From Candidatus Eiseniibacteriota bacterium (GTDB lineage: Bacteria > Eisenbacteria > RBG-16-71-46 > DASYSL01): DNA of 64,000 nt. The translations under genes and the position numbers were made by a program. This document shows positions 11,762 to 41,128 of this stretch, one piece after another. The stretch is taken from the NCBI GenBank assembly GCA_031431875.1, contig JANPEF010000011.1:407-64406 (forward strand), read 5' to 3'. Every line of letters starts with the position of its first letter. Within the stretch, counting starts at the first letter, position 1. The notes under the pieces were generated by a model. The model did not search any database. It was not told where the DNA came from and worked only from the letters and a program-made list of their open reading frames with translations.

Positions 11762-11772
11762 TCGGTCCGCTC

Positions 11773-16337: not shown

Positions 16338-16352
16338 TCGGCCGGGTGGCGG

Positions 16353-19223: not shown

Positions 19224-19232
19224 ACTCGCCTC

Positions 19233-20906
19233 CTAGCGTGGCGTGAGGGTGGTGAGGACGAGCAAGAGCTCGCCCCGGTCAAACTTGTTCGGCGACGGAT
19301 CCGCGTAGGGATGGTCCGCCGCGGGGAAGCCATCGAATCGACTCGTGTTGTACTCCGCCCACGACGGGTTTGGATACAGCGGAATTGCAGGCGCCTCGCT
19401 GACGAAGACCCGCTGCAACTCGACGCACAGCGCCCGCTGCTTCGTTGGATCGGCTTCGCGCTCGAACGCGGCGAGCCCGCGGTCGGCCGCGGGGCTGCCG
19501 TAGCGGTGCCAGTTGCCCATCGCCGCGACGCCGACGGGGCTCACCGTCGCCGAGGCCATGAGCCAGCGGTAGAACGAATAGGGCGTCGGACCCTCGAACG
19601 ACCAGCCGAGCGTGAGGTCGAAGTTCCCCTCCTGGACGCGCTGGAACCAGGCGCTGAAGTCGTAGGTGCGCACCGTCGCGTCGACGCCGAGGGACTGCAG
19701 GTCGCGGGCGATCACCTGCGCGGCGCGAACCCAGTCGGACCAGCCGGCGACCGACAGCACCTCGTAGCGCAGGGGCTTGCCGTCGGGGAGACGGCGCATC
19801 CCGTCCGCGCCGCGCACCAGGCCCGCCGCGTCGAGCAGGCGCCCGGCGGCGGCCGGGTCGTGGCGAACCCAGTCGCCGGCCGCGACGGCCGCGGAGTCGC
19901 GCCACGCGGCATAGGCGTCGCTGAGGCCCGTGGCGTCGGCGGGTCGCGAGTAATGGTGCAGCGCCACGTCGACCATCAACGTCCGGTCGATCGCCATGCT
20001 GAACGCCTTGCGCACGCGCACGTCGTCGAACGGCGCGCGCCTCGTGTTGGCGTACAGGAAGATGCTGCTGCCGGTGAGCGGGAACCAGTAGCGATGATGC
20101 TCCGGGTTCCGACCGACGAAGACACGGTCGACGGCGGGAATGAAGTTCCCGGCCCAGTCGGCCTCGCCGAAGACGAGGGCCAGGTTCGCGCGATCGTTCG
20201 ACGGGTAGGCGGGGCAGCGGATGGCGTCGAAGTGCGGCTCGCCGGGGCGCCAGTAGCGGGGATTCCGGCCGAGTTCGTAGACCTGGTTCTGGAAGACGCG
20301 GACCTCGGTGAAGGGTCCGGTGGCGACCGGGTTCTCGTTCGCGAAGGCCACCGGATCCGCCACCGTGCTCCACACGTGGCGGGGCACGATCTGCTGGGCG
20401 ACGATCTCGTCGAAGCCGGGGATGAACACCCGCTGGAAGCGGAAGGCGACGGTGCGCTCGTCCACTGCATCGACCGCCGAGAGGAAGCCCCAGAGGCCGC
20501 GCCGATCGAGGGCGGGATGGCGCTTGAGCAGGTCGAAGGTGAACGCCACGTCGCGGGCGTCGAACGGCCGGCCGTCCGACCACAGCACGCTGTCACGCGT
20601 GGTCAGTTGCAACACGAGGTTTCCCTCGGTCCAGGCGTGGCCGACGGCGAGCCACGGCACGTACTCGGAGCGCTGGCTGTTGAACACGTACAGCGGTTCG
20701 TAGATCCCGGCCAGCGTGGGCCAGCGGGCCGACGTCGCGGTGGTCAGCGGATTGAAGTTGCGGATCCACGAGGCCTGCTGTTCCTGCGAGACGACGAGCA
20801 CCCCGGCCGGGGCCCGCGGTACGTCGCGGGCGCAGGCGACCGCCCCGAGCGCGGCGAGCGCGAACGCGAGGCGCGCCCACGGGGGCGGCGGCGCTGCAGC
20901 GATCAC
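19233..20906 (-). CDS. ABC transporter substrate-binding protein, family 5 (OppA/DppA-like). The genomic context suggests a beta-gluco-oligosaccharide ligand.
   Basis: Signal peptide. ~557 aa with SBP_bac_5-like composition. It heads the SBP-oppB-oppC-oppD operon, 10 bp upstream of oppB. Confidence 0.75.
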   Translation of the reverse strand: MIAAAPPPPWARLAFALAALGAVACARDVPRAPAGVLVVSQEQQASWIRNFNPLTTATSARWPTLAGIYEPLYVFNSQRSEYVPWLAVGHAWTEGNLVLQLTTRDSVLWSDGRPFDARDVAFTFDLLKRHPALDRRGLWGFLSAVDAVDERTVAFRFQRVFIPGFDEIVAQQIVPRHVWSTVADPVAFANENPVATGPFTEVRVFQNQVYELGRNPRYWRPGEPHFDAIRCPAYPSNDRANLALVFGEADWAGNFIPAVDRVFVGRNPEHHRYWFPLTGSSIFLYANTRRAPFDDVRVRKAFSMAIDRTLMVDVALHHYSRPADATGLSDAYAAWRDSAAVAAGDWVRHDPAAAGRLLDAAGLVRGADGMRRLPDGKPLRYEVLSVAGWSDWVRAAQVIARDLQSLGVDATVRTYDFSAWFQRVQEGNFDLTLGWSFEGPTPYSFYRWLMASATVSPVGVAAMGNWHRYGSPAADRGLAAFEREADPTKQRALCVELQRVFVSEAPAIPLYPNPSWAEYNTSRFDGFPAADHPYADPSPNKFDRGELLLVLTTLTPR

Positions 20907-21730
20907 GACCCGGACCGGTACACCCGGACCCAGTCGACGAGCATCGTCTGGGGGAACACCGTGCTCTCATCGGGCGGGCCCACGAAGTTGCCGCCGACTG
21001 CGACGTTCAGGATCATGAAGAAGGGATGGTCGAACACCCAACGCCCGCCGGCGGGGAGGTCGGCCGGCGTGAGCACGCGGTAGACGACGTCGTCGACGAA
21101 CCAGGTGATCCGGCTCTCGCTCCACTCGACCGCGAAGACGTGGAAGTCGTCGTTGAAGTTGGCGCCCGGCAGCGTGTACCGCGTCCCCACCGAGTTGCCG
21201 CCCGAGTAGCCGGGTCCGTGGATGGTGCCGAGGATGACGTTCGGCTCCTGGCCGCGGTACTCCATGATGTCGATCTCGCCGCAGGTGGGCCAGCCAACCG
21301 TGCCGAAGTCGTTGCCGAGGGCCCAGAACGCGGGCCAGATGCCCTGTCCGATCGGCAGCTTGATCCGTGCCTCGAACCGCCCGCGCGCCTGCTCGAAGAG
21401 CCCGCGCGTGTTGATCCGCGCCGACGTGTACTCGGACTCGAGGTAGTTCTCCTCGCGGGCGATGATCGCCAGGTTTCCCGCACCGTCGAGCGACGCGTTC
21501 TGCGGGCGCGCCGTGTCGTACTCGAGTTGCTGGTTACCCCAGTCGGTGCCGATGTCGAAGCGCCAGCGCGCCGGGTCGGGGGACTGGCCCGCAGCTCCTT
21601 CGAACTCGTCCTGCCAGGCGAGGGTCCACTCCAGCGGCACCGGGTCGGTGGCGCCGCTGCGGCAGCCGGTGAGCGCGAGGAGGAGGGCGAACAGGAGCCA
21701 GGGTCGAGCGTCGCCCCTGCGTGCGGTCAT
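20903..21730 (-). CDS. GH16 laminarinase-type endo-beta-1,3-glucanase, lipoprotein
   Basis: Lipobox LLLALTGC. A GEIDIMEY catalytic motif (GH16 ExDxxE with beta-bulge). WPAFWALG and ILNVAVGG motifs conserved in GH16 laminarinases. Confidence 0.85.
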   Translation of the reverse strand: MTARRGDARPWLLFALLLALTGCRSGATDPVPLEWTLAWQDEFEGAAGQSPDPARWRFDIGTDWGNQQLEYDTARPQNASLDGAGNLAIIAREENYLESEYTSARINTRGLFEQARGRFEARIKLPIGQGIWPAFWALGNDFGTVGWPTCGEIDIMEYRGQEPNVILGTIHGPGYSGGNSVGTRYTLPGANFNDDFHVFAVEWSESRITWFVDDVVYRVLTPADLPAGGRWVFDHPFFMILNVAVGGNFVGPPDESTVFPQTMLVDWVRVYRSGS

Positions 21731-22980
21731 GCGATCTCCGCGGTCGGTGTGGCGAGATTGAAGTGACGGGAGTCGGCGAGTGCCGATTGGAGGACGAGCG
21801 TGGCCGCTCCGATGGCCCCGGCGCGCGGGCCCAGCTCGCTGACCTGAATCGCCGAGGCCGAGAATGCGCTGAGCAACGTGCGGCGACTGACCGTCTCGCG
21901 CAGGGGCTCGAGCAGGATCTCGCCGAGCCGCGCGATGCCGCCGCCGAGGATGACGCGGGCGGGATTGAGGAGGTTGAGCACGTCGGCGACGGCGATGCCG
22001 AGGTTCTCCGCCGCTTCGACCACGACCTGCAGGGCGATCGGGTCGCCGGCAAGTGCCGCGTCCTCGATCGCGGTGATCGTGGGCTCGGTGTCGGCAAGCA
22101 TGCTGTCCGGATCACGCGCGAGCAACTCGCGGGCGCGGGCAACCAGCGCCGGGGCACCGATCAGTGTGGCGAGGCAGCCGCGCAGGCCGCAGATGCACAG
22201 CGCGCCGTGCGGGTCGATGGCAACGTGACCGATCTCGCCGGCGGTGCCTCTGGCGCCGCGGTAGATGTTGCCCGCGATGATGTGGCCCGAGCCGATGCCG
22301 GTCGCCAGCTTGATGTAGGCGAAGTCGTCGATGCCGCGGCCCGCTCCCCACCACTGCTCGGCGAGCGCCCCGAGGTTCGCGTCGTTGTCGACCATCAGCG
22401 GTGCGCCGAAGCGCTGTGAGAGGACCTGGAGTCCGCCGCGTCCGGACCACGCGGGGAGCACGAGCTCGGACAGGTGGTCGGGGTCCGTCGGGTCCACGGG
22501 GCTGGGCACGGCGACGCCGATGCCGACCAGGCGCTGCGACTCGTCAGCTCCCGCGGCCAGCGCGTCCTGGCAAAGCTCGATCATCAGCGCGCGGGTTCCC
22601 CTGGGATCCGTGCGCACGGCATGGTGGCGGTGCTCCCACGCGAGCACGCGCCCCCGCAGGTCCGTGAGCGCGACGGCAATGTGCGTCGCGCCCATCTCGA
22701 CGCCCAGGATGACGCACGCACCGTCCTGGAAGCGCAGCACGATCGGCCGGCGGCCGCCGCGCGAGGGACCGGTGCCGACTTCGGCGACCAGCCGGGTGAG
22801 CAGCAGGCCGTCGACGATCTCGGAAACCGTCGACCGCGAGAGCTCGGCCCGGCGGGCGATCTCGGCGCGCGAGATCTCGCCCTCCCGCCAGATGCGGCGC
22901 AGCACCGAGTCGGAGAGGCGCCGCCGCCGCGCGGCACCGGAGTGACGCGCTCGCTTTCCCAGGAAGCCGGACTTCATCAT
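21727..22980 (-). CDS. ROK-family transcriptional regulator (NagC/XylR-like) with an N-terminal wHTH
   Basis: Start re-assigned to the ATG at 22978-22980, overlapping the upstream stop (ATGA). HTH RRIWREGEISRAEIARRAELSRSTVSEIVDGL. ROK glycine-rich motifs and a CxCGxxGC zinc motif (CICGLRGCLA). Confidence 0.8.
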   Translation of the reverse strand: MMKSGFLGKRARHSGAARRRRLSDSVLRRIWREGEISRAEIARRAELSRSTVSEIVDGLLLTRLVAEVGTGPSRGGRRPIVLRFQDGACVILGVEMGATHIAVALTDLRGRVLAWEHRHHAVRTDPRGTRALMIELCQDALAAGADESQRLVGIGVAVPSPVDPTDPDHLSELVLPAWSGRGGLQVLSQRFGAPLMVDNDANLGALAEQWWGAGRGIDDFAYIKLATGIGSGHIIAGNIYRGARGTAGEIGHVAIDPHGALCICGLRGCLATLIGAPALVARARELLARDPDSMLADTEPTITAIEDAALAGDPIALQVVVEAAENLGIAVADVLNLLNPARVILGGGIARLGEILLEPLRETVSRRTLLSAFSASAIQVSELGPRAGAIGAATLVLQSALADSRHFNLATPTAEIA

Positions 22981-24416
22981 CGGTGGAAGTAGACGTTGTC
23001 GACGTACACGGTGCTCGCGTCGCTGGAGAGGATGAGCTGCGCCACGTGGCCACGCGTCGTCAGGCCGGTGAAGCTCTCCAGCGGGATGTCGAGGTCGGAC
23101 CAGACCCCGGTCCGGAACGCCGGGGTGGTCCCGCCGTTGAAGCTCAACTCCTGTTCCCGGTCGTCGCCGCCGCCGAAGACGCCGTTGGCCCCGAAATCGA
23201 CCAGCTTGATCCGGCAGATCGCCCCGCCCGAGGCCCACACGTCGAGATGGACGTGGGTCATCGCGGTGGCATCGATGGGCAGCGACGTGAACTCGATACC
23301 CGCGTACGTGAGGTTCGAATAGGCCTTCGTGTCGTTGCCGGCGATCTGCACATCCGACACGTCCGCCAGATCCCACGTTGCCGACCAGGTGTCGACGGGC
23401 CGGTTCACGTACGAGTTGCTGAACAGCGAGATCACGTCGGCCGCCGGCCGCGTTGGAACCGGCGCCGCGTCGGGGGGCAGCGCCGAAGCGTTCACAGTCA
23501 GCACACCGACCGCGGGGATGGTCCCGAGGCGGGCCGTGATTTCGGTCCGGCCGGCCCTGTAGACCCGGACGATGCCCTGGTCGACCTGCGCCACGGAGTC
23601 GACCGACGTGGCGTAGTCGAACCAGGCCGGCATGTGCTCGACGATCTGGTTCGCCCCGCCGACGTCGAACGTCGTGCGCGTCCCTTGCACCGGGAAGGAC
23701 GCCCCGGCGAAGGCGCCGACGAGACGCGACTGCAGCCCGGGCCGAGGGTTCGAGATGGTGTCGACGGTCTCGAACATGATGTCATCAAACCACAACGTGT
23801 AGCCCGAGCCCGCCTCGGGACCCTCGGCGAAGAAGAACATGCCTCGCTCGGCGCGGAGCACTCCGGTCAGGGGGATCGGGATCGTGTACTTGGTCCAGGC
23901 CGTCGTGAGGGGAATCGCGGCCCACCGCACCTCGTACTTCGAGGTCCCCGTGTTGTCGTTGCCGAGTCCGGCCACGTCGAGCGTCGCGGTCCGGCTGGCC
24001 CTGGCCCAGAAGGTCAGCGCGTTGTAGCCGGAGGGATCGCGGGCCTGCACGGTCGTGAACGCGCCGCCGGCGTAGCCGCCGGCCGGATCGCTGGGCCCCG
24101 GGACGCTCACCTTGAGGGAGGAGGTGCCCAGGTGCGAGACGGTGCCGTCGACCGTCACCGCCGTCACCTTCGATCCGGCGAACGCCTGGTAGCCGACTCC
24201 GTCGCCATACGCGTCGAGAAAGACGATCGGATCGGCATTTCCTGGAGCGAGTCCAAGGTCCGCGGTGTCGTGACCGCAGCCGGCCATCGCGACGGTGAGC
24301 GCCGCAGCCGCGGCGAGCAGGAGGAACGTGTGTCTCGGCGTCACGGCATGCCTCCGGCTGGGGCGAGGTTCGGCGCCCGACACCCCCGAGAACCGCGTGA
24401 AATGGGCGAAATCCAT
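22977..24416 (-). CDS. surface lipoprotein with beta-sandwich/CBM-like domains; candidate glycan-binding protein of the locus
   Basis: Lipobox LTVAMAGCG. No catalytic motifs. Located between the ROK regulator and the NHL protein. The exact start is uncertain (ATG at 24416, or an internal GTG/ATG near 24350). Confidence 0.5.
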   Translation of the reverse strand: MDFAHFTRFSGVSGAEPRPSRRHAVTPRHTFLLLAAAAALTVAMAGCGHDTADLGLAPGNADPIVFLDAYGDGVGYQAFAGSKVTAVTVDGTVSHLGTSSLKVSVPGPSDPAGGYAGGAFTTVQARDPSGYNALTFWARASRTATLDVAGLGNDNTGTSKYEVRWAAIPLTTAWTKYTIPIPLTGVLRAERGMFFFAEGPEAGSGYTLWFDDIMFETVDTISNPRPGLQSRLVGAFAGASFPVQGTRTTFDVGGANQIVEHMPAWFDYATSVDSVAQVDQGIVRVYRAGRTEITARLGTIPAVGVLTVNASALPPDAAPVPTRPAADVISLFSNSYVNRPVDTWSATWDLADVSDVQIAGNDTKAYSNLTYAGIEFTSLPIDATAMTHVHLDVWASGGAICRIKLVDFGANGVFGGGDDREQELSFNGGTTPAFRTGVWSDLDIPLESFTGLTTRGHVAQLILSSDASTVYVDNVYFHR

Positions 24417-24671: not shown

Positions 24672-25640
24672 ATGATCGTGCTCGGGAAGCTGGGATTTCT
24701 CCTGCTCTGCTGCGTCGCATTCGCCGTTCCTGCCGCGGCCCAGCCGCCGACCTATCTCTACTCGATTCCGAGCGCCGGCCGGTGGTGGGAGATCCACCAG
24801 ATGGTGCAGCATCCCGACGGGCGCGTGTTCATCGCCGCCGGGCAGACCAACCGGGTTCTCGTCTATGACGAGAACGGCGCATACCAGGCGCAGTTCGGCG
24901 CCAGCGGGACGGGCCTCGGACAGTTCCACGTGACCGGGGGAATCGCCATTGCGGCGGATGGCTCGATCTTCGTCGCCGACCAGTCCAACCACCGGGTCCA
25001 GAAATTCTCGTCCGCCTTCGCACCGCTGGCCGCGTGGGGCACGCTGGGGACCGGCCCGGGGCAGTTGTGGTACCCGACGAACCTGGCGATCTCGCCGGAC
25101 CAGTCGCAACTCTATGTCGTCGAGTACTACGGAAATCGCGTGAGCGTGTTCGACTTGAACGGAGTGTTCCTCGGCAGCTTCGGCACGGGGGGAACCGGCG
25201 ACGGCCAGTTCGATCATCCCTGGGGCATCGCAGTCGACGGCGCGGGAAGCGTGCTCGTCTCCGACCAGTTCAATCACCGCATCCAGCGCTTCTCCGGGGC
25301 GGGAGCGTACCTGACGCAGTTCGGCCTGCCCGGCAGCGGGCCCGGACAGTTCAAGAATCCGGTCGGGATGGGCTTCGACTCGAAGGGCGATCTCTTCGTC
25401 TGCGACCAGTTGAACAATCGCATGCAGCAGTTCACGCCGGGCGGCTCGTTCCTCACCGAGTGGGGCACGTACGGCGGCGCCCCGGGCCAGTTCTACAACA
25501 ACTGGGCCGTGCTCGCCCTCGCCAACGAGAACGTCTGGGTGGCGGACACGTACAACCACCGCATCCAGGTCTTCGGCTTCATTCCCACGGCCGCCGTACC
25601 TGCGACCTGGGGCGGGATCAAGCACCAGTACCGCGAATAG
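24672..25640 (+). CDS. secreted NHL-repeat (six-bladed beta-propeller) protein
   Basis: ATG at 24672 with a GGAGGG RBS. The 885-aa track ORF is a read-through of the opposite strand. Signal peptide MIVLGKLGFLLLCCVAFAVPAAA. Six repeats of the type xxxPxGIAVDxxGxxxVxDxxNxRIQxF. Confidence 0.8.
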   Translation: MIVLGKLGFLLLCCVAFAVPAAAQPPTYLYSIPSAGRWWEIHQMVQHPDGRVFIAAGQTNRVLVYDENGAYQAQFGASGTGLGQFHVTGGIAIAADGSIFVADQSNHRVQKFSSAFAPLAAWGTLGTGPGQLWYPTNLAISPDQSQLYVVEYYGNRVSVFDLNGVFLGSFGTGGTGDGQFDHPWGIAVDGAGSVLVSDQFNHRIQRFSGAGAYLTQFGLPGSGPGQFKNPVGMGFDSKGDLFVCDQLNNRMQQFTPGGSFLTEWGTYGGAPGQFYNNWAVLALANENVWVADTYNHRIQVFGFIPTAAVPATWGGIKHQYRE

Positions 25641-25684
25641 AATGAACGGCCCGTCGCCGCTGCGGGCTCGGGCGGATTGACAGG

Positions 25685-25713
25685 CGCGCGGGACCGAGAG
25701 TAGGGTCCCGCGC
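25685..25713 (+). other. GC-rich hairpin (11-bp stem CGCGCGGGACC / GGTCCCGCGCG, 7-nt loop) abutting the GTG start of the MTase-PIG-L gene
   Basis: Perfect inverted repeat seen in the sequence. No downstream T-tract. It could be a terminator for the NHL gene or a translational/transcriptional control element. Confidence 0.4.
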
Positions 25714-27162
25714 GTGCGTGCCGCAACGAATCCGGACGACCTGCTGCGTCTGCTCGACGCGTTCCCTCCTGTCATCCCTTCCCGCATTCTCGTCTTCGGT
25801 CCCTTCGCCATCCCGATCTCCGAGGCCCTGCGCGCGCGCGGTCACGTCGTCGTTGCCGGCGTGATTCAGGCGCGCGAGCCGGCGCTCGCCGACGGCACGC
25901 GCCCGCCACCGGGCTCGTTCGATGTCATCGTCGCGGCGGGCCTGCTCGAGGATCTGTCCTGGGATCGCTGGGCATTGCAGCAGATGCACCGCTGGCTCTC
26001 GCCGGACGGCCGACTGCTCGTGACCGCGCCGAATCTATGGAGCCCGCTCGCGCTCGCCGACCCGCGCTACGTCGCCGGCAAACTCGCCAAGCAGTGGCCG
26101 AAGGTGCTGCGCCGCCTGGGCCGCACCCCGGCGCCCGCGCGAGATCCCGCGCGTCCCGTCAGGCGCGCCTACGACGTGCGACGGCTGCGCGGCATGCTCG
26201 AGCAACTCGGCTTCGCGGTGGAACGAGCCTCGCTGGGAGGACTCGGCAGCGAACACATCCTGTGGGCGCGTCGTCAGCCCGGTGTGTTCGGTCTCGCCCC
26301 CGAGCGACCGTTTCCCGATCCCGTTGCGCACCACGCGCGCTTCGACCGGGAGCACCGTGACCTCGGCCGCATCCGCGACGCCTGGCTCGCGGCGCAGCCT
26401 GGGCCCGCCGCGGGGGTGCCCGCGCAGGCCCCGCGCGAGCTCGTGCCCGGTGAGTACGCCGGCGCCGAAGTGCTCGTTCTCGCCCCGCACCCCGATGACG
26501 AGATCATCGGTTGCGGCGGCACGATCGGGCTGCTCGCCCGGGCCGGCGCGCGGGTGACGGTCGTCCAGGCGACGGACGGTTCGGCCTCGGCCGCCTTCGT
26601 CGACGAGCCCGAGGCGGTCCGCCGGCAGGTGCGGCTCGACGAGGCGACCGCGGTCGCCCGCGCCGCGGGGATCGCCCGCACGATCTTCTGGCGTGAGGAC
26701 AACCAGGCGTTCGTCTACCGGCCCGAACTCGTCACGCGACTTCGCGGCATCCTCGAGGAAGTCGATCCGGCACTCATCTTCGTTCCGTTCATCACGGACA
26801 TCCACGCGGATCACGTGCTGCTCGCCCGCATTCTCGCCGAAGCACTCGAGGGGTGGGACCGGCCGCACACCCGGGTGTTGGGTTACGAGATCTGGAGCCG
26901 CGTTCCGGCCAACGCGTGGTGCGACGTGACCGCGATCATGCCCGAGCTGCTGGAGTGGATCCTGCTCTACGAGACCGCGATGAAGGTCGACGACTTCGTG
27001 CACGCCTGCGCGGCGCGCGATTACGCCAACGCGCTCACGTTGTCGGGGCGCGCCGGGTTTGTCGAGGCGTTCCACGCCGGCGGCGTGGCGGCCTTTCGGG
27101 ACCTCGTGAATCGCGCCGCAGGGTCTGCTACGATCGGCTCTCTCCGAAGCTCCACATCCTGA
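25714..27162 (+). CDS. fusion protein: N-terminal class I SAM-methyltransferase-like domain + C-terminal PIG-L/LmbE-family N-deacetylase
   Basis: GTG start. N-terminal ILVFGPF...FDVIVAAGLLEDL...GRLLVTAPN (MTase-like). C-terminal LVLAPHPDDEIIGCGGT (PIG-L AHPDDE signature) and a downstream His/Asp-rich region (ITDIHADH). Confidence 0.6.
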   Translation: MRAATNPDDLLRLLDAFPPVIPSRILVFGPFAIPISEALRARGHVVVAGVIQAREPALADGTRPPPGSFDVIVAAGLLEDLSWDRWALQQMHRWLSPDGRLLVTAPNLWSPLALADPRYVAGKLAKQWPKVLRRLGRTPAPARDPARPVRRAYDVRRLRGMLEQLGFAVERASLGGLGSEHILWARRQPGVFGLAPERPFPDPVAHHARFDREHRDLGRIRDAWLAAQPGPAAGVPAQAPRELVPGEYAGAEVLVLAPHPDDEIIGCGGTIGLLARAGARVTVVQATDGSASAAFVDEPEAVRRQVRLDEATAVARAAGIARTIFWREDNQAFVYRPELVTRLRGILEEVDPALIFVPFITDIHADHVLLARILAEALEGWDRPHTRVLGYEIWSRVPANAWCDVTAIMPELLEWILLYETAMKVDDFVHACAARDYANALTLSGRAGFVEAFHAGGVAAFRDLVNRAAGSATIGSLRSSTS

Positions 27163-27179
27163 ACCCCGAGGGGGAACGA

Positions 27180-27482
27180 GTGCCGCCCGCGATCACCGCC
27201 GAGTCCATCGCCGAGAGTGTGTCCCGTGCCATCGCCGCGCACAACGCGAGCGAGGGAACCGCCATCCCAGCGGCCGCCGACACCGCCCTGCTGGGCGAGG
27301 GTGGCGCCGTCGACTCGCTGGGTCTCGTGCGGCTGGTGATGACCGTCGAGCGCCAGGTCGAGGATGACTTCGGCGTGTCGCTGTCGCTGACCGACGAGAA
27401 GGCGATGTCGCAGCGGAACAGCCCGTTCCGGACGGTGGGCACGCTGACCGCCTACATCGGCTCGTGCCTCGCGCAGCCGTGA
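27180..27482 (+). CDS. acyl carrier protein (stand-alone, ~100 aa)
   Basis: GTG start with a GAGGGGGAA RBS 18 nt after the upstream stop. A phosphopantetheine attachment motif GGAVDSLGLVRLVM and an acidic helix II. Confidence 0.7.
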   Translation: MPPAITAESIAESVSRAIAAHNASEGTAIPAAADTALLGEGGAVDSLGLVRLVMTVERQVEDDFGVSLSLTDEKAMSQRNSPFRTVGTLTAYIGSCLAQP

Positions 27483-28186
27483 CGACGAAGTCGCGCACCA
27501 TCTTCATCACGGGCACGCGCAAGGGCATCGGCCGGTTCCTGGCCGAGCACTACGTCGCGCAGGGCCATCGAGTCGTCGGCGTGAGTCGCGAGGCGCCCGA
27601 TTGGACGCTCGCCGGCTACCGCCACTTCCGTGCCGACGTCGCGGACGAGGCGATGATGCGCGGTGTCTTCCACGAAGTCCGACGCGACTACGGCGGGCTC
27701 GACGTGCTGATCAACAACGCCGGGATCGCCTCGATGAACCACGTCCTGCTGACGCCCATGAAGACGCTCGAGTCGATCTTCTCGACCAACGTGTTCGGGA
27801 CCTTTCTCGCCTGCCGCGAGGGCGCGCGCCTGATGATCGCCGCGAAGCGCCCCGGCCGTATCGTCAACTTCGCGACCGTGGCGACGCCGCTGCGGCTCGA
27901 GGGTGAGGCCGTGTACGCCGCGTCCAAGGCCGCGGTCGAGAGCCTGACCCGCGTCCTCGCCCGCGAACTGGCCGAATACGGGATCACCGTCAACGCGGTC
28001 GGACCCACCCCGGTCGAGACCGACCTCATCCGCTCCGTCTCGAAGGAGAAGATCGCGGCGCTGCTCGCCCGCCAGGCCGTGCCGCGGCTCGGCGAGATGC
28101 GCGACATCGCGAACGTGATCGACTTCTTCATTCGGGAGGAAAGCGACTTCGTCACGGGGCAGGTGGTCTACCTCGGGGGCGTGTAG
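27479..28186 (+). CDS. SDR-family oxidoreductase (FabG-like 3-oxoacyl-ACP reductase fold)
   Basis: TGxxxGIG Rossmann motif (ITGTRKGIGRFLA), NNAG, and a YAASKAAVESL catalytic YxxxK. A GTG start overlaps the ACP stop. An alternative GTG lies at 27464. Confidence 0.85.
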   Translation: MTTKSRTIFITGTRKGIGRFLAEHYVAQGHRVVGVSREAPDWTLAGYRHFRADVADEAMMRGVFHEVRRDYGGLDVLINNAGIASMNHVLLTPMKTLESIFSTNVFGTFLACREGARLMIAAKRPGRIVNFATVATPLRLEGEAVYAASKAAVESLTRVLARELAEYGITVNAVGPTPVETDLIRSVSKEKIAALLARQAVPRLGEMRDIANVIDFFIREESDFVTGQVVYLGGV

Positions 28187-29532
28187 TGCCCCTCGACTTC
28201 CTGACCGAAGTCAGCCGCGAGTTCGCAGACGGGGAAGCGATCGTCGATCGCGATCGTGCGGTGACGTATCGCGCGCTCGCCGCGGCGATCGCCGCAGCCC
28301 GGGTCCGCCTCGCCGCTGCGGGGATCGGCGCCGGCGCGGTTGTCGCCCTCGAGGCCGACTATTCGGCGTCGGCGATCGCGATGCTCCTTGCCCTGTTCGA
28401 ATCCGGTGCGATCGCGGTGCCGCTCGCCCCGGTCCCGGGGACGCGCAATCCCACGCTGCGCGAGCTCGCGCAGGCCGAGTGGCGCGTCACTGCGTCCGGC
28501 GACGGGGGGGACGAGGCGCGGATCGAGTCGACCGGAGTCGTCGCGGCGCATCCGCTCTACGCCGAGCTGCGAGCCCGCGGGGTGCCGGGCCTCGTGCTCT
28601 TCACCTCGGGCTCGACCGGCGAGCCGAAGGCCTCCGTGCACGACGGCGAGAGGCTGCTGCGCAAGTACCGGACCCGGCGCCGCGGCCGGCGAACCCTGCT
28701 GTTCCTGCTCTTCGACCACATCGGCGGCGTCGACACGCTGCTGCAGGTCCTGGCCAACGGTGGCACGGCGATCATTCCCGCCGATCGCACGCCGGAAAGC
28801 GTCTGCGCCACGATCGAGCGCCACTGCGTCGAGGTGCTTCCGGCCGCGCCCAGCTTTCTCGCCATGCTGCTGTTGAGCGAGGCCCACCTGCGCCACGATC
28901 TCTCGTCGCTGCGCTGGATCACGTACGGCGCCGAGGTCATGCCGCAGGCCACGCTCGACCGGGTGGCCCGTGTGTTTCCGCAGGCCACGCTGCTGCAGAA
29001 GTACGGCATCACCGAGGTGGGCACGCTGCGCTCGAGGTCGCGAGCGAACGACTCGCTGTGGGTGAAGGTCGGCGGCGATGGTTTCGCCACCCGCGTCGTC
29101 GATGGCAGGCTCGAGATCAAGGCCGAGTCGAGCATCCTCGGTTACCTGAACGCGCCTTCGCCGTTCACCGCCGACGGCTGGTTCATCACCGGCGACGCGG
29201 TGGAGGTCGATGGCGAGTACCTGCGCATCCTGGGAAGGGTCTCGGATCTCATCAATGTCGGCGGTCGCAAGGTCTATCCCGCCGAGGTCGAGGGCGTGAT
29301 CCTCGAACTCGACGAGATCGCCGAGGCTGCGGTCCTCGGCGAAGCGCACCCGTTCACCGGGCAGGTCGTCGTCGCGCGCGTCGTGCCGCGCGGGCCGACC
29401 GAACCACGCGCCCTCGAACAGCGTGTCCGCGCCCACTGCCGGGCCCGCCTCGAGTCGTACAAGGTTCCGGTCAAGGTCCTCGTCTCCACCGGGTCGCTGC
29501 ACTCGGAGCGACAGAAGACGACGAGGCGCTGA
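28186..29532 (+). CDS. AMP-dependent synthetase/ligase (short acyl-CoA/acyl-ACP synthetase-like, 448 aa)
   Basis: AMP-binding motif LFTSGSTGEPKA, YGITEVG and a GWFITGD motif. It follows the ACP and SDR in the same orientation with 1-nt overlap. Confidence 0.8.
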   Translation: MPLDFLTEVSREFADGEAIVDRDRAVTYRALAAAIAAARVRLAAAGIGAGAVVALEADYSASAIAMLLALFESGAIAVPLAPVPGTRNPTLRELAQAEWRVTASGDGGDEARIESTGVVAAHPLYAELRARGVPGLVLFTSGSTGEPKASVHDGERLLRKYRTRRRGRRTLLFLLFDHIGGVDTLLQVLANGGTAIIPADRTPESVCATIERHCVEVLPAAPSFLAMLLLSEAHLRHDLSSLRWITYGAEVMPQATLDRVARVFPQATLLQKYGITEVGTLRSRSRANDSLWVKVGGDGFATRVVDGRLEIKAESSILGYLNAPSPFTADGWFITGDAVEVDGEYLRILGRVSDLINVGGRKVYPAEVEGVILELDEIAEAAVLGEAHPFTGQVVVARVVPRGPTEPRALEQRVRAHCRARLESYKVPVKVLVSTGSLHSERQKTTRR

Positions 29533-29538
29533 GGCACC

Positions 29539-30411
29539 ATGGCGACCGTGCGCGCAGCCATGCCGGCGGATTTTGCTGCGATCCACCCGTTGCTTCTCGA
29601 TTTCGCCAACTCCGCGATGACACGCGAGGACTGGCGCCGCATGCTGTTCGACCCGCCGTGGCCCGTCGAGGAGCCGACCCGCGGCTACCTCCTCGAGGAC
29701 GGCGGGCAAGCCGTGGGATTCCTCGGCACGATCTTCAGCGCGCGCGACGTGCGCGGGACGCTGCGGCGATTCTGCAACCTGTCGAGCTGGGTCGTGCGCG
29801 AGGACTACCGGGCGTCGAGCTTGCAGCTGCTCCTTCCCGTGCTCGGCTTGCGCACGCATACCATCGTCAACCTGAGCGCGTCGGCCCGGGCGCACGAGAT
29901 CTTTCGCGGGCTCGGCTTCCGCCCGCTCGAGGATCGACAGGTGCTGCTGCCGCCGATCGCGCGAATCGCCGACCTCGTCGCCTGGCCCGGCGCGCAGGTC
30001 ACCACCGACTTCGCCGCGATCGCCGCGGCGCTGGATCCGGCCGGCCGACGGATCGCCGTGGAGATGGTGGACACGCGCGCCGCGCAGGTCCTGATTCGCC
30101 GGGGCACCCGCTCGTGCCACGCGATCGCGGTCAGGAGCCCGTGGAAGCGGGGGCTCTTCCTCGCCCACGTCCAGTACGCCAGCGACTGGGAACTGCTGCT
30201 CGAGTGTGTTCCGCAGGCGACCGCCGGATTCTTCCCGCGACTCCGCACCGTCGGCCTGCGCGTCGACGGTCGGCGCATCGCGGGCCCCGTGCCGCAGTTC
30301 GGCGTGATGCGCCCGCTGGCGCTTCCCACCCTGTATCGCCCGGCCGAATCCGATCTTTCTCCGAACGATGTCGACGGGCTGTACACGGAGCTGGTGCTGC
30401 AACGCTGGTAG
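29539..30411 (+). CDS. GNAT-fold acyltransferase-like protein (candidate N-acyltransferase / N-acyl amino acid synthase-like)
   Basis: 290 aa. The N-terminal half is GNAT-like (GYLLEDGGQAVGFLGTIF.). It is the last gene of the MTase/PIG-L-ACP-SDR-ligase cassette. The family assignment is weak. Confidence 0.5.
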   Translation: MATVRAAMPADFAAIHPLLLDFANSAMTREDWRRMLFDPPWPVEEPTRGYLLEDGGQAVGFLGTIFSARDVRGTLRRFCNLSSWVVREDYRASSLQLLLPVLGLRTHTIVNLSASARAHEIFRGLGFRPLEDRQVLLPPIARIADLVAWPGAQVTTDFAAIAAALDPAGRRIAVEMVDTRAAQVLIRRGTRSCHAIAVRSPWKRGLFLAHVQYASDWELLLECVPQATAGFFPRLRTVGLRVDGRRIAGPVPQFGVMRPLALPTLYRPAESDLSPNDVDGLYTELVLQRW

Positions 30412-30583
30412 CGGGGACGGGGACGACTGCGCCCGATCCCCGGCTGTCGTGGAATTGACGCTTGATTCGTCCGCTCGGCGTCAAACCTTGCCCCGTCCAT
30501 CTTGTCGCCGCCGCCGGGGCGAGCCTACCCTCGTCGGCACGCGGGCATCCCCGTCCGCGGCCCGACCCGAGGGAGATAAGCCG

Positions 30584-31888
30584 ATGCACCCCGACCTCGA
30601 TTCATCCCGCCTGGATTCCGCAACCCGCGTCGGCCTGCTGCTCGACGTCTCGCGCAGCGTGCATGGCACGCTCGAGCTGGACGAAGTGCTCGAACGATTG
30701 CTCTGCGCCGCCGGCCATGTCGTCGCGTTCGATGCGGGCGGTATTTTCGTGCTGCGCGACGGCCTGGTGGTCGACCGCGGCGTCCCGGCCGGGCCGATGA
30801 TCGCCAGCTTTGCACGCCGTGGTTACGATTCGGGCCCGCGGGGGCGCGATCCGGTCCTCAACCACGGCGGTGGCATCACCGGGCATGCGATCCTCCAGGG
30901 CGAGGTGGTCCGCGCGCCCGACGTGCGCGCCGATGCGCGTTATGTCGAGGCTCGCGCTCGCACGTGCTCCGAGATCGCCGTGCCGATCGTGCGCGGCGGC
31001 CGGGTCATCGGTGCGCTCAACCTGGAGAGCGATCGGCTCGACGCGTTCGTCGACACCGACGTCGAGACGCTGGGATTCTTCGCCGAGGCCGCGGGGATCG
31101 CGATCGAGAACGCTGTCCTGCACGCGCGCCTGCTCGCGGGCGAGCGCTTCGAGTCGCAGATGCGGCTCGCCCAGGAGGTGCAGTCGCGCCTGCTGCCGAC
31201 CGAGCCGCCCGTGGTTCCCGGCTACGACCTGGCGGGCCGCTGCATCCCGACGCTGCGCATCGGCGGCGACTACTATGACGCGATTCCGTCGAGCGACGGC
31301 CGGCTCACGCTCGTCGTGGCCGACGTGGCGGGCAAGGGCGTCGCCGCAGCGCTCGTCATGGCCGCGTTTCGTGCGTTGCTGCGCAGCCGGCTCGATGCGG
31401 GCGGGTCGCTGTCCGAGGTCGTCGCCGATGTGAACCGTGCGCTGCCCGATTCGCTGGCCGGGGTCGTGTTCGTCACGGCGTTCGTGGCGCGGCTCGACCC
31501 GGCGAGTGGCACGCTGGCCTACGTCAACGCGGGGCATAATCCACCGTTCGTCGTGCGCGATCCGGCGGGCGATGTCCGCGGCAACGCGACGGAATGGCTG
31601 GAGCGCGGCGGGCCGTTGCTCGGCGTGTTCCCCGCCGCGCGCTACGAGGAGGGGGTGACCAGGCTGGGACCCGGCGACCTGCTCGTGCTCTACACCGACG
31701 GTGTCGTCGAGTGCGCCGATCCCGCGCGCAGCGACTTCGGTGCGGAACGGCTGGCAACCGTTGCGGCCCGGCTGCGCCGGCGGAGCGCACCCGAGCTGAT
31801 CCGCGACATCGTCCTGCTCACCCGCGAGTTCTCGGGGGCGGTCGAGTACGACGACGACTTCACGATCGTCGCGCTCCGGCGGGAGTGA
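30584..31888 (+). CDS. GAF-domain + PP2C-type (SpoIIE/RsbU-like) serine phosphatase
   Basis: ATG at 30584 with a GGGAGA RBS. GAF region with RAPDVRADARYVEARARTCSEIAVPIVRGGRVIGALNLES. PP2C motifs GGDYYDA, VVADVAGKGVAAAL and YTDGVVE. Confidence 0.8.
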   Translation: MHPDLDSSRLDSATRVGLLLDVSRSVHGTLELDEVLERLLCAAGHVVAFDAGGIFVLRDGLVVDRGVPAGPMIASFARRGYDSGPRGRDPVLNHGGGITGHAILQGEVVRAPDVRADARYVEARARTCSEIAVPIVRGGRVIGALNLESDRLDAFVDTDVETLGFFAEAAGIAIENAVLHARLLAGERFESQMRLAQEVQSRLLPTEPPVVPGYDLAGRCIPTLRIGGDYYDAIPSSDGRLTLVVADVAGKGVAAALVMAAFRALLRSRLDAGGSLSEVVADVNRALPDSLAGVVFVTAFVARLDPASGTLAYVNAGHNPPFVVRDPAGDVRGNATEWLERGGPLLGVFPAARYEEGVTRLGPGDLLVLYTDGVVECADPARSDFGAERLATVAARLRRRSAPELIRDIVLLTREFSGAVEYDDDFTIVALRRE

Positions 31889-37890: not shown

Positions 37891-38138
37891 TCACGCAAGC
37901 CCAAGCGGGCACGCAGTTTTCGGTTGCGTGACGCGCCACGATCTGTCACGATTCTCCCGGCTCCTCCTCCCGGGGTTCCCGTCACTCGGATGTGACGTTT
38001 TCACGTCCTGTGGTGGTGGACTCCGTTGGTCCCGGCTCCTTCCCCCGTCGGGCCGATGGTTCTCAATGGGTCCCTTTCCTTTCAGCCGCGTCGCGTGTGC
38101 GTCGGGTCAACCGTCGCCGCCGGCCATCGAGGTGCTTC

Positions 38139-38825: not shown

Positions 38826-38867
38826 TCGTTGCTTTCGGAGCGATCCGAAGCTCATGGGGGTGCACCG

Positions 38868-39566: not shown

Positions 39567-39620
39567 CAGCGCGAAGCGCTAGGGTGTGCAGCTCCATGCA
39601 CACCGAGCGAGATCGAACCA

Positions 39621-39660
39621 GGGGCGGCTCCGGCAACGGGGCCGCCCCTTCGTTCGTTCC
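39621..39660 (+). terminator. rho-independent terminator-like hairpin (GGGGCGGC-12 nt loop-GCCGCCCC) followed by TTCGTTCGTTCC
   Basis: An 8-bp perfect GC stem at 39621-39648 directly downstream of paralog B. A second 7-bp palindrome GTGTGCA..TGCACAC lies at 39584-39602. Confidence 0.55.
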
Positions 39661-39690
39661 CTGGCATGCGTGTGCTAGCTTGCTTGCGCC

Positions 39691-40953: not shown

Positions 40954-41128
40954 TAAAATGTTGCGTGACAATACGTTATGGATGACACTCTTGAAGTGTT
41001 AGCCCGTGGCTCGCGGATGGCTAAATTTAGTAAACCTACCAACATCGGCTCATTTGTCTCTGGTGTCTCATCGTGTCGTGAGTTAGATTTACTCCAATGG
41101 CTAAAAATAGCCTTGGAGGTGAATCGAC

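Follow-up and report, generated by a model that had tools for sequence, protein, structure and literature searches.

A candidate five-gene cassette for carrier protein-dependent exchange of the N-acyl group on an amino sugar

Introduction

Nod-factor N-acylation involves NodB, a CE4 deacetylase, NodA, an acyl-ACP-dependent N-acyltransferase, NodF, a dedicated ACP, and NodC, a GT2 enzyme. In glycopeptide tailoring, the acyltransferases of the teicoplanin and A40926 enzyme pairs (e.g., Dbv21) take their acyl group from acyl-CoA and are members of a different family from the acyltransferase described here. The tetronate module of Vibrio cholerae O1 N-acylates perosamine, with WbeL as its AMP-ligase-like enzyme, and works without a deacetylase because the amine of perosamine is already free when this sugar is synthesised. 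The gene set of the module comprises VC0248-VC0252 (rfb/wbeK-O) (PMC3441752). In Porphyromonas and Tannerella, the Wbp/Vim linking-sugar pathway includes VimE (CE4), VimA (GNAT/FemAB-like), and WbpS (AsnB-like) (Veith et al. 2020, PMC7468200). Finally, the exosortase-A (PEP-CTERM) EPS trio, which is functionally uncharacterised, consists of an acyl-CoA ligase (TIGR03098), a PLP decarboxylase (TIGR03099), and an ACP.

Here, we describe a five-gene cassette, found in a 64-kb window (the whole stretch of DNA analysed) of the genome of an uncultured bacterium, probably a member of Eisenbacteria, whose arrangement appears to be undescribed, as the original prediction had stated. With moderate confidence, we propose that it directs a cytoplasmic N-acyl swap on an amino sugar, in which a HexNAc precursor would be de-N-acetylated, re-N-acylated in an ACP-dependent manner, and used to decorate a surface glycan. 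This proposed chemistry resembles that of NodB/NodA/NodF, LpxC/LpxD, and VimE/VimA.

Results

The cassette occupies positions 25714-30411 and consists of five closely packed genes on the + strand, an arrangement borne out by GC3 frame analysis and by identical, independent gene calls in four additional assemblies that contain this sequence. A gap of 17 nt separates the first gene from the ACP gene, the ACP and SDR genes overlap by 4 nt (GTGA) or, with an alternative SDR start, by 19 nt, the SDR and ligase genes overlap by 1 nt, and 6 nt lie between the ligase gene and the last gene. All five of the originally predicted domain assignments hold, based on families, motifs, predicted structures, and profile alignment, and the cassette contains no ketosynthase, as had also been claimed.

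The first gene (25714..27162) encodes a 482-aa protein in which a helical linker joins an N-terminal class-I methyltransferase-like domain (about aa 1-190; PF13489, 29 bits) to a C-terminal PIG-L/LmbE domain (about aa 250-470; PF02585, 82 bits). The PIG-L half carries the expected PHPDDE and HADH motifs, and its closest structural relatives are enzymes acting on diacetylchitobiose, the BshB-like BC1534, MshB, and enzymes acting on glycopeptide pseudoaglycones. This domain is the predicted de-N-acetylase of a HexNAc glycoside. Structure comparison supports the methyltransferase fold of the N-terminal half, but the SAM loop is degenerate and lacks GxGxG, so that a functional SAM methyltransferase is unsupported, and this half is probably non-catalytic in the window copy.

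The second gene (27180..27482) has a GTG start preceded by GAGGGGGAACGA and encodes a divergent stand-alone ACP of 100 aa, with insertions after helix II and before helix IV and the phosphopantetheine serine within AVDSLGL. It scores below threshold against PF00550 (12.9 bits; cut-off, 20.8) and reaches E=0.0017 against the NCBIfam AmcB ACP, and most of its best PDB sequence matches, at E>=0.1, are carrier proteins. Profile alignment with hhalign against the ACPs of related loci gave E=2e-5 and 77% probability with the serine in register, the DSxG serine is kept in 7/7 carrier proteins compared, and the protein takes the position held by bona fide ACPs in other variants. Thus, the dedicated ACP of the original prediction fails its Pfam check yet is backed by the aligned serine; the evidence for this assignment is weaker than that for the deacetylase, SDR, ligase, and acyltransferase.

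The third gene (27479..28186) encodes an SDR of 235 aa (240 aa with the start at 27464) with strong Pfam matches (PF13561, E=7e-47; PF00106, E=1e-44), the motifs TGTRKGIG and YAASK (TGxxxGIG/YxxxK), and nearest solved structures that are all FabG (E about 1e-37). It is predicted to act on the 3-oxo/3-hydroxy group of an ACP-bound acyl chain, although its substrate could instead be the sugar, and the source of a 3-oxoacyl substrate is speculative because no ketosynthase is present. The fourth gene (28186..29532) encodes a compact AMP-forming ligase of 448 aa (PF00501, 125 bits; PF13193, 54 bits) that contains the motif LFTSGSTGEPKA, retains the C-terminal Lys, and has 4-chlorobenzoate-CoA ligase, FadD13, and MenE as its nearest PDB entries (E 1e-26 to 1e-21). 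This enzyme is the predicted loader of the carrier protein.

The last gene (29539..30411) encodes a 290-aa protein, referred to here as F290, for which neither Pfam nor NCBIfam gives a match, even at E=10. Its AlphaFold model (pLDDT 94.8) nevertheless displays a high-confidence tandem-GNAT fold, so that the terminal GNAT of the original prediction stands on structure but not on HMM evidence. Since the canonical GNAT Q/RxxGxG/A motif is absent, a transferase function is drawn from the fold and the genomic context. The nearest folds include Eis-like enzymes (Acetyltransf_9), N-myristoyltransferase (NMT), and Naa enzymes; sequence identity to the Eis-like enzymes and NMT is 8-14%, and unlike the Eis-like GNATs, F290 lacks a C-terminal SCP2-like domain and a CoA-binding glycine motif. 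The F290 family is large, widespread, uncharacterised, and unnamed, comprising some 2,700 clusters at 50% identity.

NMT, Eis, and the Naa enzymes are protein N-acyltransferases, and in many loci the PIG-L gene is next to genes for secreted NHL, FG-GAP, or Kelch proteins that bear sorting-type tags at the C terminus. In the window, the gene directly upstream of the PIG-L gene (24678..25640, + strand) encodes a secreted, ScyF-like NHL-repeat beta-propeller (NHL matches in Pfam; NF035926 ScyF, E=4e-85, below cut-off) that starts with a signal-peptide-like segment and ends in the tag ATWGGIKHQYRE, and tagged NHL genes also adjoin the PIG-L gene in loci L013, L019, and L048/L049. These observations could point to F290 acylating a protein, such as the neighbouring beta-propellers, or acting as an O-acyltransferase while PIG-L works independently on a glycan, but we give this reading very little weight, less than any other considered here. 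In our preferred reading of an N-acyl swap on an amino sugar, the NHL-repeat gene is a possible accessory to the cassette.

Gene neighbourhoods link F290 to carrier proteins, unlike Eis-like tandem GNATs and NMT. Among 19 non-redundant F290 loci flanked on each side by at least 3 kb of sequence, a carrier-protein gene lies nearby in 16, a carrier loader (AMP-ligase or FkbH) in 17, and a sugar N-deacetylase (PIG-L or the unrelated CE4) in 17; no ACP was detectable in 3/19 and no deacetylase in 2/19. The five genes are co-conserved in relatives: the order ACP-SDR-ligase-F290 is repeated in at least 12 distinct loci of Eisenbacteria type (F290 identity, 44-83%), where the gene for the PIG-L fusion adjoins it on varying sides and strands. 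In some F290 loci, CE4 (PF01522) substitutes for PIG-L, and in some variants the place of the AMP-ligase is taken by an FkbH domain (TIGR01686, E=2e-94), an enzyme type known to load ACPs; these non-orthologous replacements leave the module logic unchanged. The absence of signal peptides from the CE4 partners is in keeping with chemistry in the cytoplasm. Additionally, a natural fusion protein, P0346, joins a PKS-DH region, a PP-binding domain (940-1002), and F290 (1030-1309), with a CE4 gene adjoining. The predicted scheme of GlcNAc-type deacetylation and ACP-dependent re-acylation is therefore supported by this fusion and by the linkage of F290 to a carrier, a loader, and two deacetylase families.

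A module swap was also observed between two syntenic polysaccharide loci (GT2, 81% identity; YfhO, 60%; GT1_4, 72%; AsnB, 71%; Wzx, 69%). One of them, L005, carries F290-ACP-SDR-ligase-LuxE-LuxC, whereas in the other, L027, a single Eis-like Acetyltransf_9 GNAT, with no significant hhalign similarity to F290, lies directly 3' of the PIG-L gene in place of the F290 module. LuxE/LuxC-like genes occur in L018 and L044 as well, which together with L005 form variant B. On the basis of the ACP::F290 fusion, the synteny, and this module swap, F290 is predicted to be an acyl-ACP-dependent N-acyltransferase.

The combination of a GNAT fold, an ACP, and an acyl-ACP-synthetase-like ligase recalls the FeeM/NAS arrangement, and the ACP of L007 resembles an ornithine-lipid-pathway model (NF052616, E=2e-13, below cut-off). 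The original prediction had drawn on fee-type N-acyl amino acid synthases, in which case F290 would acylate an amino acid from ACP to yield a signalling or membrane lipid, with the PIG-L protein either unrelated or an amidase. However, neither F290 of the window nor any of 48 relatives shows PF13444 (NAS/OlsB) similarity, the OlsH/OlsI pathway enzymes are unrelated, the unit loaded by FkbH, the loader in some variants, is glyceryl and not a fatty acid, and F290 consistently occurs with two unrelated sugar-deacetylase families and glycan genes. We consider this interpretation highly improbable.

Many F290 relatives lie within polysaccharide loci, including those of cultured Paludibaculum and of Sinorhizobium meliloti pSymB. 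The genes there encode glycosyltransferases, Wzx, WecG, an O-antigen-ligase family protein, UDP-sugar dehydrogenases, AsnB-like amidotransferases, and GT-C/YfhO proteins, arguing against the secondary-lipid or signalling role that had been favoured. The window itself contains no glycosyltransferase, flippase, or sugar-nucleotide genes over its 64 kb; the cassette neighbours beta-glucan utilisation genes and regulators. Location in a known LPS or capsule locus, raised as a point against the original prediction, thus holds in spirit for the relatives, whose polysaccharide loci are uncharacterised, but in the window no glycosyltransferase adjoins the cassette.

PIG-L enzymes are known to act on small or lipid-linked GlcNAc glycosides, and for this reason the acceptor may be something other than a precursor of a polysaccharide. 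The same deacetylation and ACP-dependent N-acylation could instead be directed at a free small glycoside or glycolipid, such as a GlcN-inositol/GlcN-phosphatidylinositol-like lipid or a mycothiol/bacillithiol-like metabolite, giving an N-acyl-glucosaminyl lipid or metabolite. Consistent with this, the structures nearest to the PIG-L domain belong to enzymes of small glycosides, and MshD, which functions in the mycothiol pathway, likewise has a tandem-GNAT architecture. In the window and most type-A loci, the cassette has neither a glycosyltransferase nor a Wzx gene beside it, and a CDP-alcohol phosphatidyltransferase gene lies directly downstream of F290 in L016. In contrast, Wzx, several glycosyltransferases, and O-antigen-ligase-like genes clearly mark the loci of other F290 variants as polysaccharide loci, neither inositol nor cysteine-ligase genes were observed, and in L009 and L020 the cassette adjoins a small GT2 resembling the polyprenyl-phosphate sugar synthases AglJ, PpgS, and ArnC. 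A small-glycoside or glycolipid acceptor is judged unlikely.

Discussion

In the favoured pathway to a surface glycan, the PIG-L domain, whose enzyme family, fold, and catalytic motifs are established, would de-N-acetylate a glycoside of a HexNAc, probably GlcNAc; the most likely acceptor is a precursor linked to a nucleotide or to polyprenyl phosphate. The AMP-ligase would adenylate a carboxylic acid and load it as a thioester onto the dedicated carrier; the gene order, the replacement of the ligase by FkbH, and the ACP::F290 fusion suggest loading on ACP rather than CoA. The SDR may then tailor the ACP-bound acyl group, plausibly converting, for example, acetoacetyl to 3-hydroxybutyryl, and F290 would pass this group from the carrier to the amine that deacetylation has exposed on the sugar. 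This would yield an N-acyl amino sugar on an exopolysaccharide, an O-antigen-like polymer, or another glycoconjugate, with the remaining steps encoded outside the window.

As in the Nod system, cytoplasmic GlcNAc de-N-acetylation would be followed by acylation of the amine from a dedicated carrier, not CoA. Some F290 variants share the CE4 deacetylase type of NodB, whereas the window uses PIG-L and, unlike the Nod system, has no NodC-like synthase. F290 and NodA have no detectable sequence relation (no PF02474 match for the window protein or relatives), and loading would be by AMP-ligase or FkbH rather than through the NodE ketosynthase route. LpxC and LpxD of lipid A biosynthesis have folds unrelated to the cassette enzymes.

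With the Wbp/Vim pathway, the cassette would share a deacetylase that strips the 2-N-acetyl and a GNAT-type enzyme that installs another N-acyl group (seryl or glycyl for Vim). Some F290 loci (L005, L008) also carry genes for AsnB-like amidotransferases and genes of the Wbp type, and genes for secreted proteins bearing C-terminal sorting domains lie nearby, a further likeness. However, the window deacetylase is PIG-L and VimE is CE4, F290 is unmatched by the VimA-type model TIGR03019 because it has no NCBIfam match, and, unlike in F290 loci, an acyl carrier protein is not named for the Vim pathway by Veith et al. (PMC7468200).

Links to the PEP-CTERM trio are found among the relatives. On S. 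meliloti pSymB, an F290 homologue lies directly 5' of genes annotated as this trio, with a CE4 deacetylase nearby, the P0346 fusion is located in a PEP-CTERM-type EPS locus, and the L007 ligase scores 448 bits against TIGR03098. The window ligase, at 124 bits against a cut-off of 592, belongs to a separate compact subfamily, and the window has an SDR but contains no decarboxylase or exosortase. The V. cholerae O1 module likewise combines a dedicated ACP, an AMP-ligase-like enzyme, reductases, and an acyltransferase, and it builds an unusual short hydroxy-acyl group that becomes attached to a surface polysaccharide through one of its amino sugars.

Gene organization of the cassette

Because the G+C content of the window is approximately 70%, raw ORF lists were full of spurious frames. 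Third-position GC analysis resolved five plus-strand genes where the original prediction had placed them, and the same five genes were present in independent gene calls for four other assemblies of the same sequence, confirming that they are co-oriented and tightly packed. In order, they encode a fusion of a methyltransferase fold to a PIG-L domain (MT-PIG-L; 25714-27162, 482 aa), a divergent carrier protein (27180-27482, 100 aa), a classical SDR (27479 or 27464 to 28186, 235 or 240 aa), a compact AMP-forming ligase (28186-29532, 448 aa), and F290 (29539-30411, 290 aa), a member of an unnamed family. The first two genes are separated by 17 nt and the last two by 6 nt, the carrier-protein and SDR genes overlap by 4 nt (GTGA), and the SDR and ligase genes overlap by 1 nt; this layout is that of a translationally coupled operon. 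A simple scan of 25300-30900 revealed no sigma-70 promoter or intrinsic terminator above shuffled expectation. In its longest form, the ORF of the GAF-SpoIIE (PP2C) phosphatase located downstream (30368-31888) overlaps the end of F290; gene callers on sister contigs place its start at the position corresponding to 30584 (434 aa), preceded by a GGGAGA ribosome-binding site, and since this leaves a 172-nt gap after F290, the phosphatase is probably a separate transcription unit. We have high confidence in both the gene calls and the folds of the cassette.

F290 belongs to a large unnamed family with a GNAT fold

A structural model of F290 built on 48 homologues was very confident (pLDDT 94.8) and displayed the GNAT alpha/beta fold, supporting the original assignment, although the protein has no match in Pfam at E<=10 or in NCBIfam at E<=1. 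Among the 48 relatives, PF00583 produced marginal matches in 10 (best E=0.003), while the F290 domain of one multidomain homologue, P0346, scored 26.0 bits against a cut-off of 20.7 in the test with sequence models of the GNAT clan. Inspection did not find the CoA pyrophosphate-binding motif A (Q/R-x-x-G-x-G/A) after beta4 in F290; the segment following strand 74-86, whose register was inferred from secondary structure rather than superposition, reads VVREDYRASSLQLL, has no glycines, and contains the nearly invariant R91 and S94. The invariant residues of F290 comprise R69, W84, D279, E284, and those of its DGLYTE tail.

It had also been proposed that F290 might be a fee-type N-acyl amino acid synthase, but PF13444 (NAS/OlsB) matched neither the window protein nor the 48 family members at E<=0.1, and this proposal is not supported. 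PF02474 (NodA) gave no Pfam match in F290 or its 48 relatives, and by the Pfam and NCBIfam scans F290 does not belong, at the sequence level, to the NodA, NAS/OlsB, or FemAB/VimA-type families. A search of PDB sequences with an HMM of 48 F290 members returned one chance match only. Comparison of the F290 profile with an Acetyltransf_9 protein from another locus (L027) was not significant (hhalign, probability 3%), so that the possible evolutionary link between F290 and Eis-like GNATs is a structural one.

A word-indexed search recovered 86 relatives of F290, all unnamed or annotated as "hypothetical", and a profile search of 1.84 billion representatives returned 2,715 clusters at E<=1e-3, of which 774 reached E<=1e-30; single-domain proteins of ~285 aa account for nearly all of the clusters. 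Among species-representative genomes the carriers are mostly Candidatus Eisenbacteria, with others in Vulcanimicrobiota, Rhodospirillales, Anaeromyxobacteraceae, and Myxococcales MAGs. The closest homologue is 83% identical, and its synteny with the window extends beyond the cassette, which makes an Eisenbacteria origin of the window probable. Two F290 loci from cultured bacteria lie in uncharacterised polysaccharide loci: L031, on pPfer1 of Paludibaculum fermentans, where the homologue is annotated as a "GNAT family N-acetyltransferase", and L032, on pSymB of Sinorhizobium meliloti ml28 (1131747-1160571), one of many S. meliloti pSymB replicons that carry a homologue annotated as a "hypothetical protein". 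The homologue of P. fermentans P105 is IRI77_RS37755, and that of S. meliloti ml28 is U8C41_12520. Our literature search found no paper characterising such an ACP/deacetylase/N-acyltransferase system, in keeping with the original view that the arrangement is undescribed.

Carrier protein, reductase, and ligase

The product of 27180-27482 is below the cut-off for PF00550 (12.9 bits versus a gathering score of 20.8; E=0.14) and for the NCBIfam ACP models (E 0.0017-0.13), and although most of its top PDB sequence matches are ACPs or PCPs, they are insignificant. The residues V44-D45-S46-L47-G48, within AVDSLGL, are invariant among 7 carrier-protein orthologues; in HMMER alignments with PDB ACPs the serine falls on their DSLD serine, and alignment of a carrier profile to ACPs encoded in other F290 loci (hhalign, E=2e-5) likewise superimposes the serine. 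The DSL-motif serine is thus found where helix II begins, matching its position in known carrier proteins. The prediction of an ACP therefore fell short in the Pfam search and held up with respect to the conserved serine. An ornithine-lipid lead, taken from the name of an ACP model, was dropped, as the OlsH/OlsI pair, consisting of a GH3-like synthetase and an alpha/beta-hydrolase, bears no relation to the cassette proteins.

The SDR scored 160 bits with PF13561 and 153 bits with PF00106, and both the TGxxxGIG cofactor motif and the YxxxK catalytic motif are visible. Its nearest solved relatives, the top PDB matches, are all FabG, as anticipated; because it is below every NCBIfam FabG equivalog cut-off, we refer to it as FabG-like rather than FabG. 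Such an enzyme might instead act on the sugar, as a 4-ketoreductase or epimerase, but its match to the Epimerase Pfam is weak and its best structural-sequence neighbours are all FabG, and for these reasons we retain a role for the SDR on an acyl-ACP.

The ligase was likewise as predicted, matching PF00501 (125 bits) and PF13193 (54 bits), with an intact P-loop of the TSGSTGxPK type (LFTSGSTGEPKA) and the C-terminal catalytic lysine kept in the ERQK tail of all orthologues from loci arranged like the window (type A, below). Among solved structures, its closest homologues are aryl or fatty acyl-CoA ligases (E ~1e-26), and the type-A motif FLLFDHIGG could equally be that of an acyl- or an aminoacyl-activating enzyme, so that substrate specificity is not deducible from the nearest PDB entries or motif comparison. 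With TIGR03098, the NCBIfam model for exosortase-A-associated acyl-CoA ligases, the window ligase scored 124 bits against a cut-off of 592; the ligase of another F290 locus (L007) scored 448 bits, and TIGR03098 is the annotation of the S. meliloti ligase adjoining F290.

A PIG-L deacetylase domain fused to a methyltransferase fold with a degenerate SAM loop

The two halves of MT-PIG-L fared differently. Residues ~250-470 have the PIG-L/LmbE fold and match PF02585 above the gathering score (82 bits), as predicted. Across 46 homologues P258-H259-P260-D261-D262, H364, and H367 are invariant, providing the metal-binding/catalytic (A/P)HPDDE and HxxH residues, and the PHPDDE, TDGS, and HxDH motifs of the deacetylase do not vary. 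Residues ~1-190 adopt the predicted Rossmann-like methyltransferase fold and weakly match SAM methyltransferase models (PF13489, 29 bits), but the glycine-rich SAM-binding motif I (E/DxGxGxG) was not found in MT-PIG-L; the window protein has RILVFGPFAIP at this position, and the consensus for the family, LxLGxxA, contains just one glycine. Lacking this loop, the N-terminal domain is probably inactive as a methyltransferase in the window protein. Strong methyltransferase profiles persist in a few distant homologues (P0142 and P0180).

F290 is encoded alongside a carrier protein, a loader, and a sugar N-deacetylase

To survey gene neighborhoods, the window and partner proteins were mapped onto 66 loci, and counts were taken from 19 non-redundant loci in which F290 is flanked in each direction by 3 kb or more. 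A carrier-protein gene lies within 6 kb of F290 in 16 of the 19 loci, a loader (an AMP-ligase or FkbH protein predicted to charge the carrier) within 6 kb in 17, and a deacetylase within 8 kb in 17; an ACP or loader occurs together with a deacetylase in 16. Based on these frequencies, the conserved core consists of loader, carrier, F290, and sugar N-deacetylase. The partnership of a sugar N-deacetylase with a dedicated ACP, as for NodA, takes the form of PIG-L plus ACP in the window and, in relatives, of CE4, a deacetylase family unrelated to PIG-L, plus ACP.

Five arrangements were distinguished. Type A, in which ACP-SDR-ligase-F290 is adjoined by MT-PIG-L on either side or strand, comprises the window, L009, L013-L015, L017, L019, L020, L038-L040, L042, L048/49, and L065, and this recurrence bears out the co-conservation originally expected. 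Type B (L005, L018, L044, and L063) has F290-ACP-SDR-ligase-LuxE-LuxC with PIG-L. Type C (L010-12, L021-23, and L054/55/59) contains genes for an ATP-grasp protein, a flavin monooxygenase, a glyoxalase, a large protein, a 75-aa carrier, F290, and CE4; the large protein has an FkbH domain (TIGR01686, E=2e-94, above cut-off). Type D (L007) is ligase-ACP-F290-CE4, and type E (S. meliloti, L032) has F290, a TIGR03098 ligase, a TIGR03099 decarboxylase, and an ACP, with CE4 further on. That the loader and deacetylase roles are each filled by non-homologous families would be hard to explain unless the four activities lie on one pathway.

Two further observations bear on this partnership. In P0346 (1,310 aa), PKS dehydratase domains are followed by a strong PP-binding domain (940-1002) and then F290 (1030-1309), and its gene is adjoined by a CE4 gene and PEP-CTERM-type EPS export genes; the direct fusion of F290 behind an ACP is most simply explained if F290 draws its substrate from that ACP. 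Furthermore, L005 and L027 are syntenic polysaccharide loci (identities of 81% for GT2, 60% for YfhO, 72% for GT1_4, 71% for the AsnB-like protein, and 69% for Wzx), but where L005 has F290-ACP-SDR-ligase-LuxE-LuxC, L027 instead has one Eis-like Acetyltransf_9 gene, presumably encoding a CoA-dependent enzyme, directly after the PIG-L gene. The same PIG-L and Acetyltransf_9 pairing occurs in L028. The swap between L005 and L027 implies that the ACP module is interchangeable with a simple GNAT N-acyltransferase beside the same deacetylase. Taken together, we consider it probable that F290 is an acyltransferase that depends on an acyl carrier protein and acts in partnership with a sugar N-deacetylase.

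Predicted acceptor and acyl group

In F290 relatives the surrounding genes encode Wzx flippases, GT1, GT2, GT4, and WecG transferases, UDP-sugar dehydrogenases and epimerases, AsnB-like amidotransferases, a YfhO GT-C enzyme, MBOAT, and an O-antigen-ligase-family protein. The original prediction would have been undermined had the cassette belonged to a known LPS or capsule locus; no glycan gene was found near it in the Pfam-annotated flanks of the window, whereas in L005, L007, L010, L011, L031, L032, and L067 it does lie among glycosyltransferase, flippase, and polymerase genes, in loci without a characterised product. Upstream in the window are beta-glucan utilisation genes (GH16, GH17, GH2-like, ROK, and an ABC importer), and downstream are the GAF-PP2C phosphatase, a LysR regulator, an aldo-keto reductase, and a Ser/Thr kinase. 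The acceptor pathway of the window cassette may thus be encoded elsewhere in the genome. Alternatively, the acceptor may be a small glycoside or glycolipid, which would account for a cassette with no glycan gene nearby; given the surroundings in relatives, we regard this main rival as unlikely. A surface-glycan destination is likely for the family and less certain for the window cassette.

In L009 and L020 the small GT2 adjoining the cassette, and in L005 and L027 the GT2 that accompanies YfhO, are similar to polyprenyl-phosphate sugar synthases (AglJ, PpgS, and ArnC), and this similarity suggests a lipid-linked HexNAc substrate. No signal peptides were detected in F290, the ACP, the PIG-L protein, or CE4 partners, indicating that the chemistry is cytoplasmic. 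With respect to the acyl group, the cassette pairs a FabG-like SDR with no ketosynthase, and a reasonable guess is that a directly loaded 3-oxo acid would be reduced on the carrier by the SDR, for instance acetoacetyl to 3-hydroxybutyryl. The FkbH family loads a glyceryl unit onto ACP. The presence of LuxE/LuxC in type B, FkbH in type C, and PLP decarboxylases in L017 and the S. meliloti F290 loci indicates that different variants install different short, functionalised acyl groups. We also noticed that the trio of ATP-grasp, flavin (Lys/Orn-type) monooxygenase, and glyoxalase-fold genes is conserved upstream of FkbH-ACP-F290-CE4 in L010-L012, L022, L054, L055, and L059, which hints at a more elaborate acyl substituent, possibly N-hydroxylated or amino-acid-extended.

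Secreted-looking proteins with a shared C-terminal tag

While examining the window, we found that three secreted-looking proteins end in a tag, [ST]WGx[ILV]KxxYR(E/K)-stop: an NHL protein (24678-25640, tag at 25605-25640) and two proteins without a family match (37992-38825, tag at 38790-38825; 38829-39566, tag at 39534-39566). Outside the window the tag occurs in L013 (two genes), L019, L044, and L048/L049, and in L013, L019, and L048/49 it ends NHL-type proteins adjoining the MT-PIG-L gene. The tag looks like an undescribed C-terminal sorting or attachment signal; unlike PEP-CTERM-type signals, it is not followed by a TM helix. The two tagged proteins of unknown family, together with an NDH-2-type oxidoreductase, lie in a region of lower G+C (38001-42000; 0.64-0.65 versus ~0.70). 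The upstream beta-glucan utilisation region (7998-24416) includes GH17-like, GH2-like (1194 aa), and GH16 genes, an oligopeptide-type ABC importer (SBP_bac_5, permease, and ATPase), a ROK gene, and a 455-479 aa protein without a family match.

Irrespective of how the other genes are arranged, a secreted beta-propeller protein adjoins the MT-PIG-L gene in most loci examined. These are of NHL, FG-GAP, or Kelch type, often with a FlgD_ig or Por_Secre_tail-like C-terminal domain (window, 24678-25640; L005, 7298-9754; L027, 7182-8987; L028, 6192-8774; L014, 8959-10665; L029, 4548-6230; L018, 7093-8019; L019, 3375-4349). This adjacency could reflect either functional linkage or the commonness of such proteins in these genomes. 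Several large window proteins (2927-4540, 9157-10815, 50234-52414, and others) carry FlgD Ig-like C-terminal domains (PF13860), which suggests that the source organism may possess a T9SS-like or related C-terminal-domain secretion system. It is conceivable, but in our estimation improbable, that the product of the cassette is a lipid-carried "linking" amino sugar with a special N-acyl group (possibly a hydroxy- or amino-acyl group), and that sorting-tagged exported proteins are covalently tethered to this sugar; candidates for tethering would be the adjoining NHL, FG-GAP, and Kelch beta-propellers, through T9SS-like C-terminal domains or the TWGxIKxxYR-COOH tag. If true, this would constitute an ACP-dependent counterpart of the Wbp/Vim pathway outside Bacteroidota and would give a function to the ligase, ACP, and decarboxylase genes of PEP-CTERM/exosortase loci.

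Comparison with known systems and implications

The logic of the cassette matches that of NodB/NodA/NodF, LpxC/LpxD, and glycopeptide PIG-L/acyltransferase pairs, all known systems that deacetylate and re-acylate. F290 itself is linked with carrier proteins and has no canonical CoA-binding glycine motif. The biochemical strategy is one already known, and the novelty lies in the unnamed, widespread tandem-GNAT family that carries it out, with ACP loading that is modular and an MTase-fold::PIG-L partner that is conserved. The tetronate module of Vibrio cholerae O1 is similar in logic (gene set in PMC3441752), and the closest match among the systems compared is the Wbp/Vim pathway, in which VimE (CE4) removes the 2-N-acetyl group and VimA (GNAT/FemAB-like) adds Ser or Gly (PMC7468200).

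In P. fermentans (L031) the F290 homologue faces an FkbH-like HAD-IIIC gene, while in S. meliloti (L032) it lies directly 5' of "exosortase A system-associated" ligase, PLP decarboxylase, and PP-binding protein genes. To our knowledge, exosortase A is not known from rhizobia, and such "exosortase A-associated" ligase, ACP, and decarboxylase genes, which for about two decades have carried annotations but no function, would acquire a role under our prediction. The N-acyl substituents of amino sugars shape the antigenicity, charge, and phage and immune recognition of bacterial surface glycans, and we know of few cases in which the enzymes installing non-acetyl N-acyl groups are known. Our analysis predicts that ~2,700 F290 clusters, which have no Pfam or NCBIfam model or characterised member, are N-acyltransferases that depend on a carrier protein and act jointly with a sugar de-N-acetylase, and the family reaches cultured, tractable bacteria through S. 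meliloti pSymB and P. fermentans. If confirmed, this would provide a modular ligase/FkbH-ACP-GNAT route for glycoengineering and would improve the annotation of polysaccharide loci in soil phyla, including Eisenbacteria, Vulcanimicrobiota, Acidobacteriota, Myxococcota, and Alphaproteobacteria.
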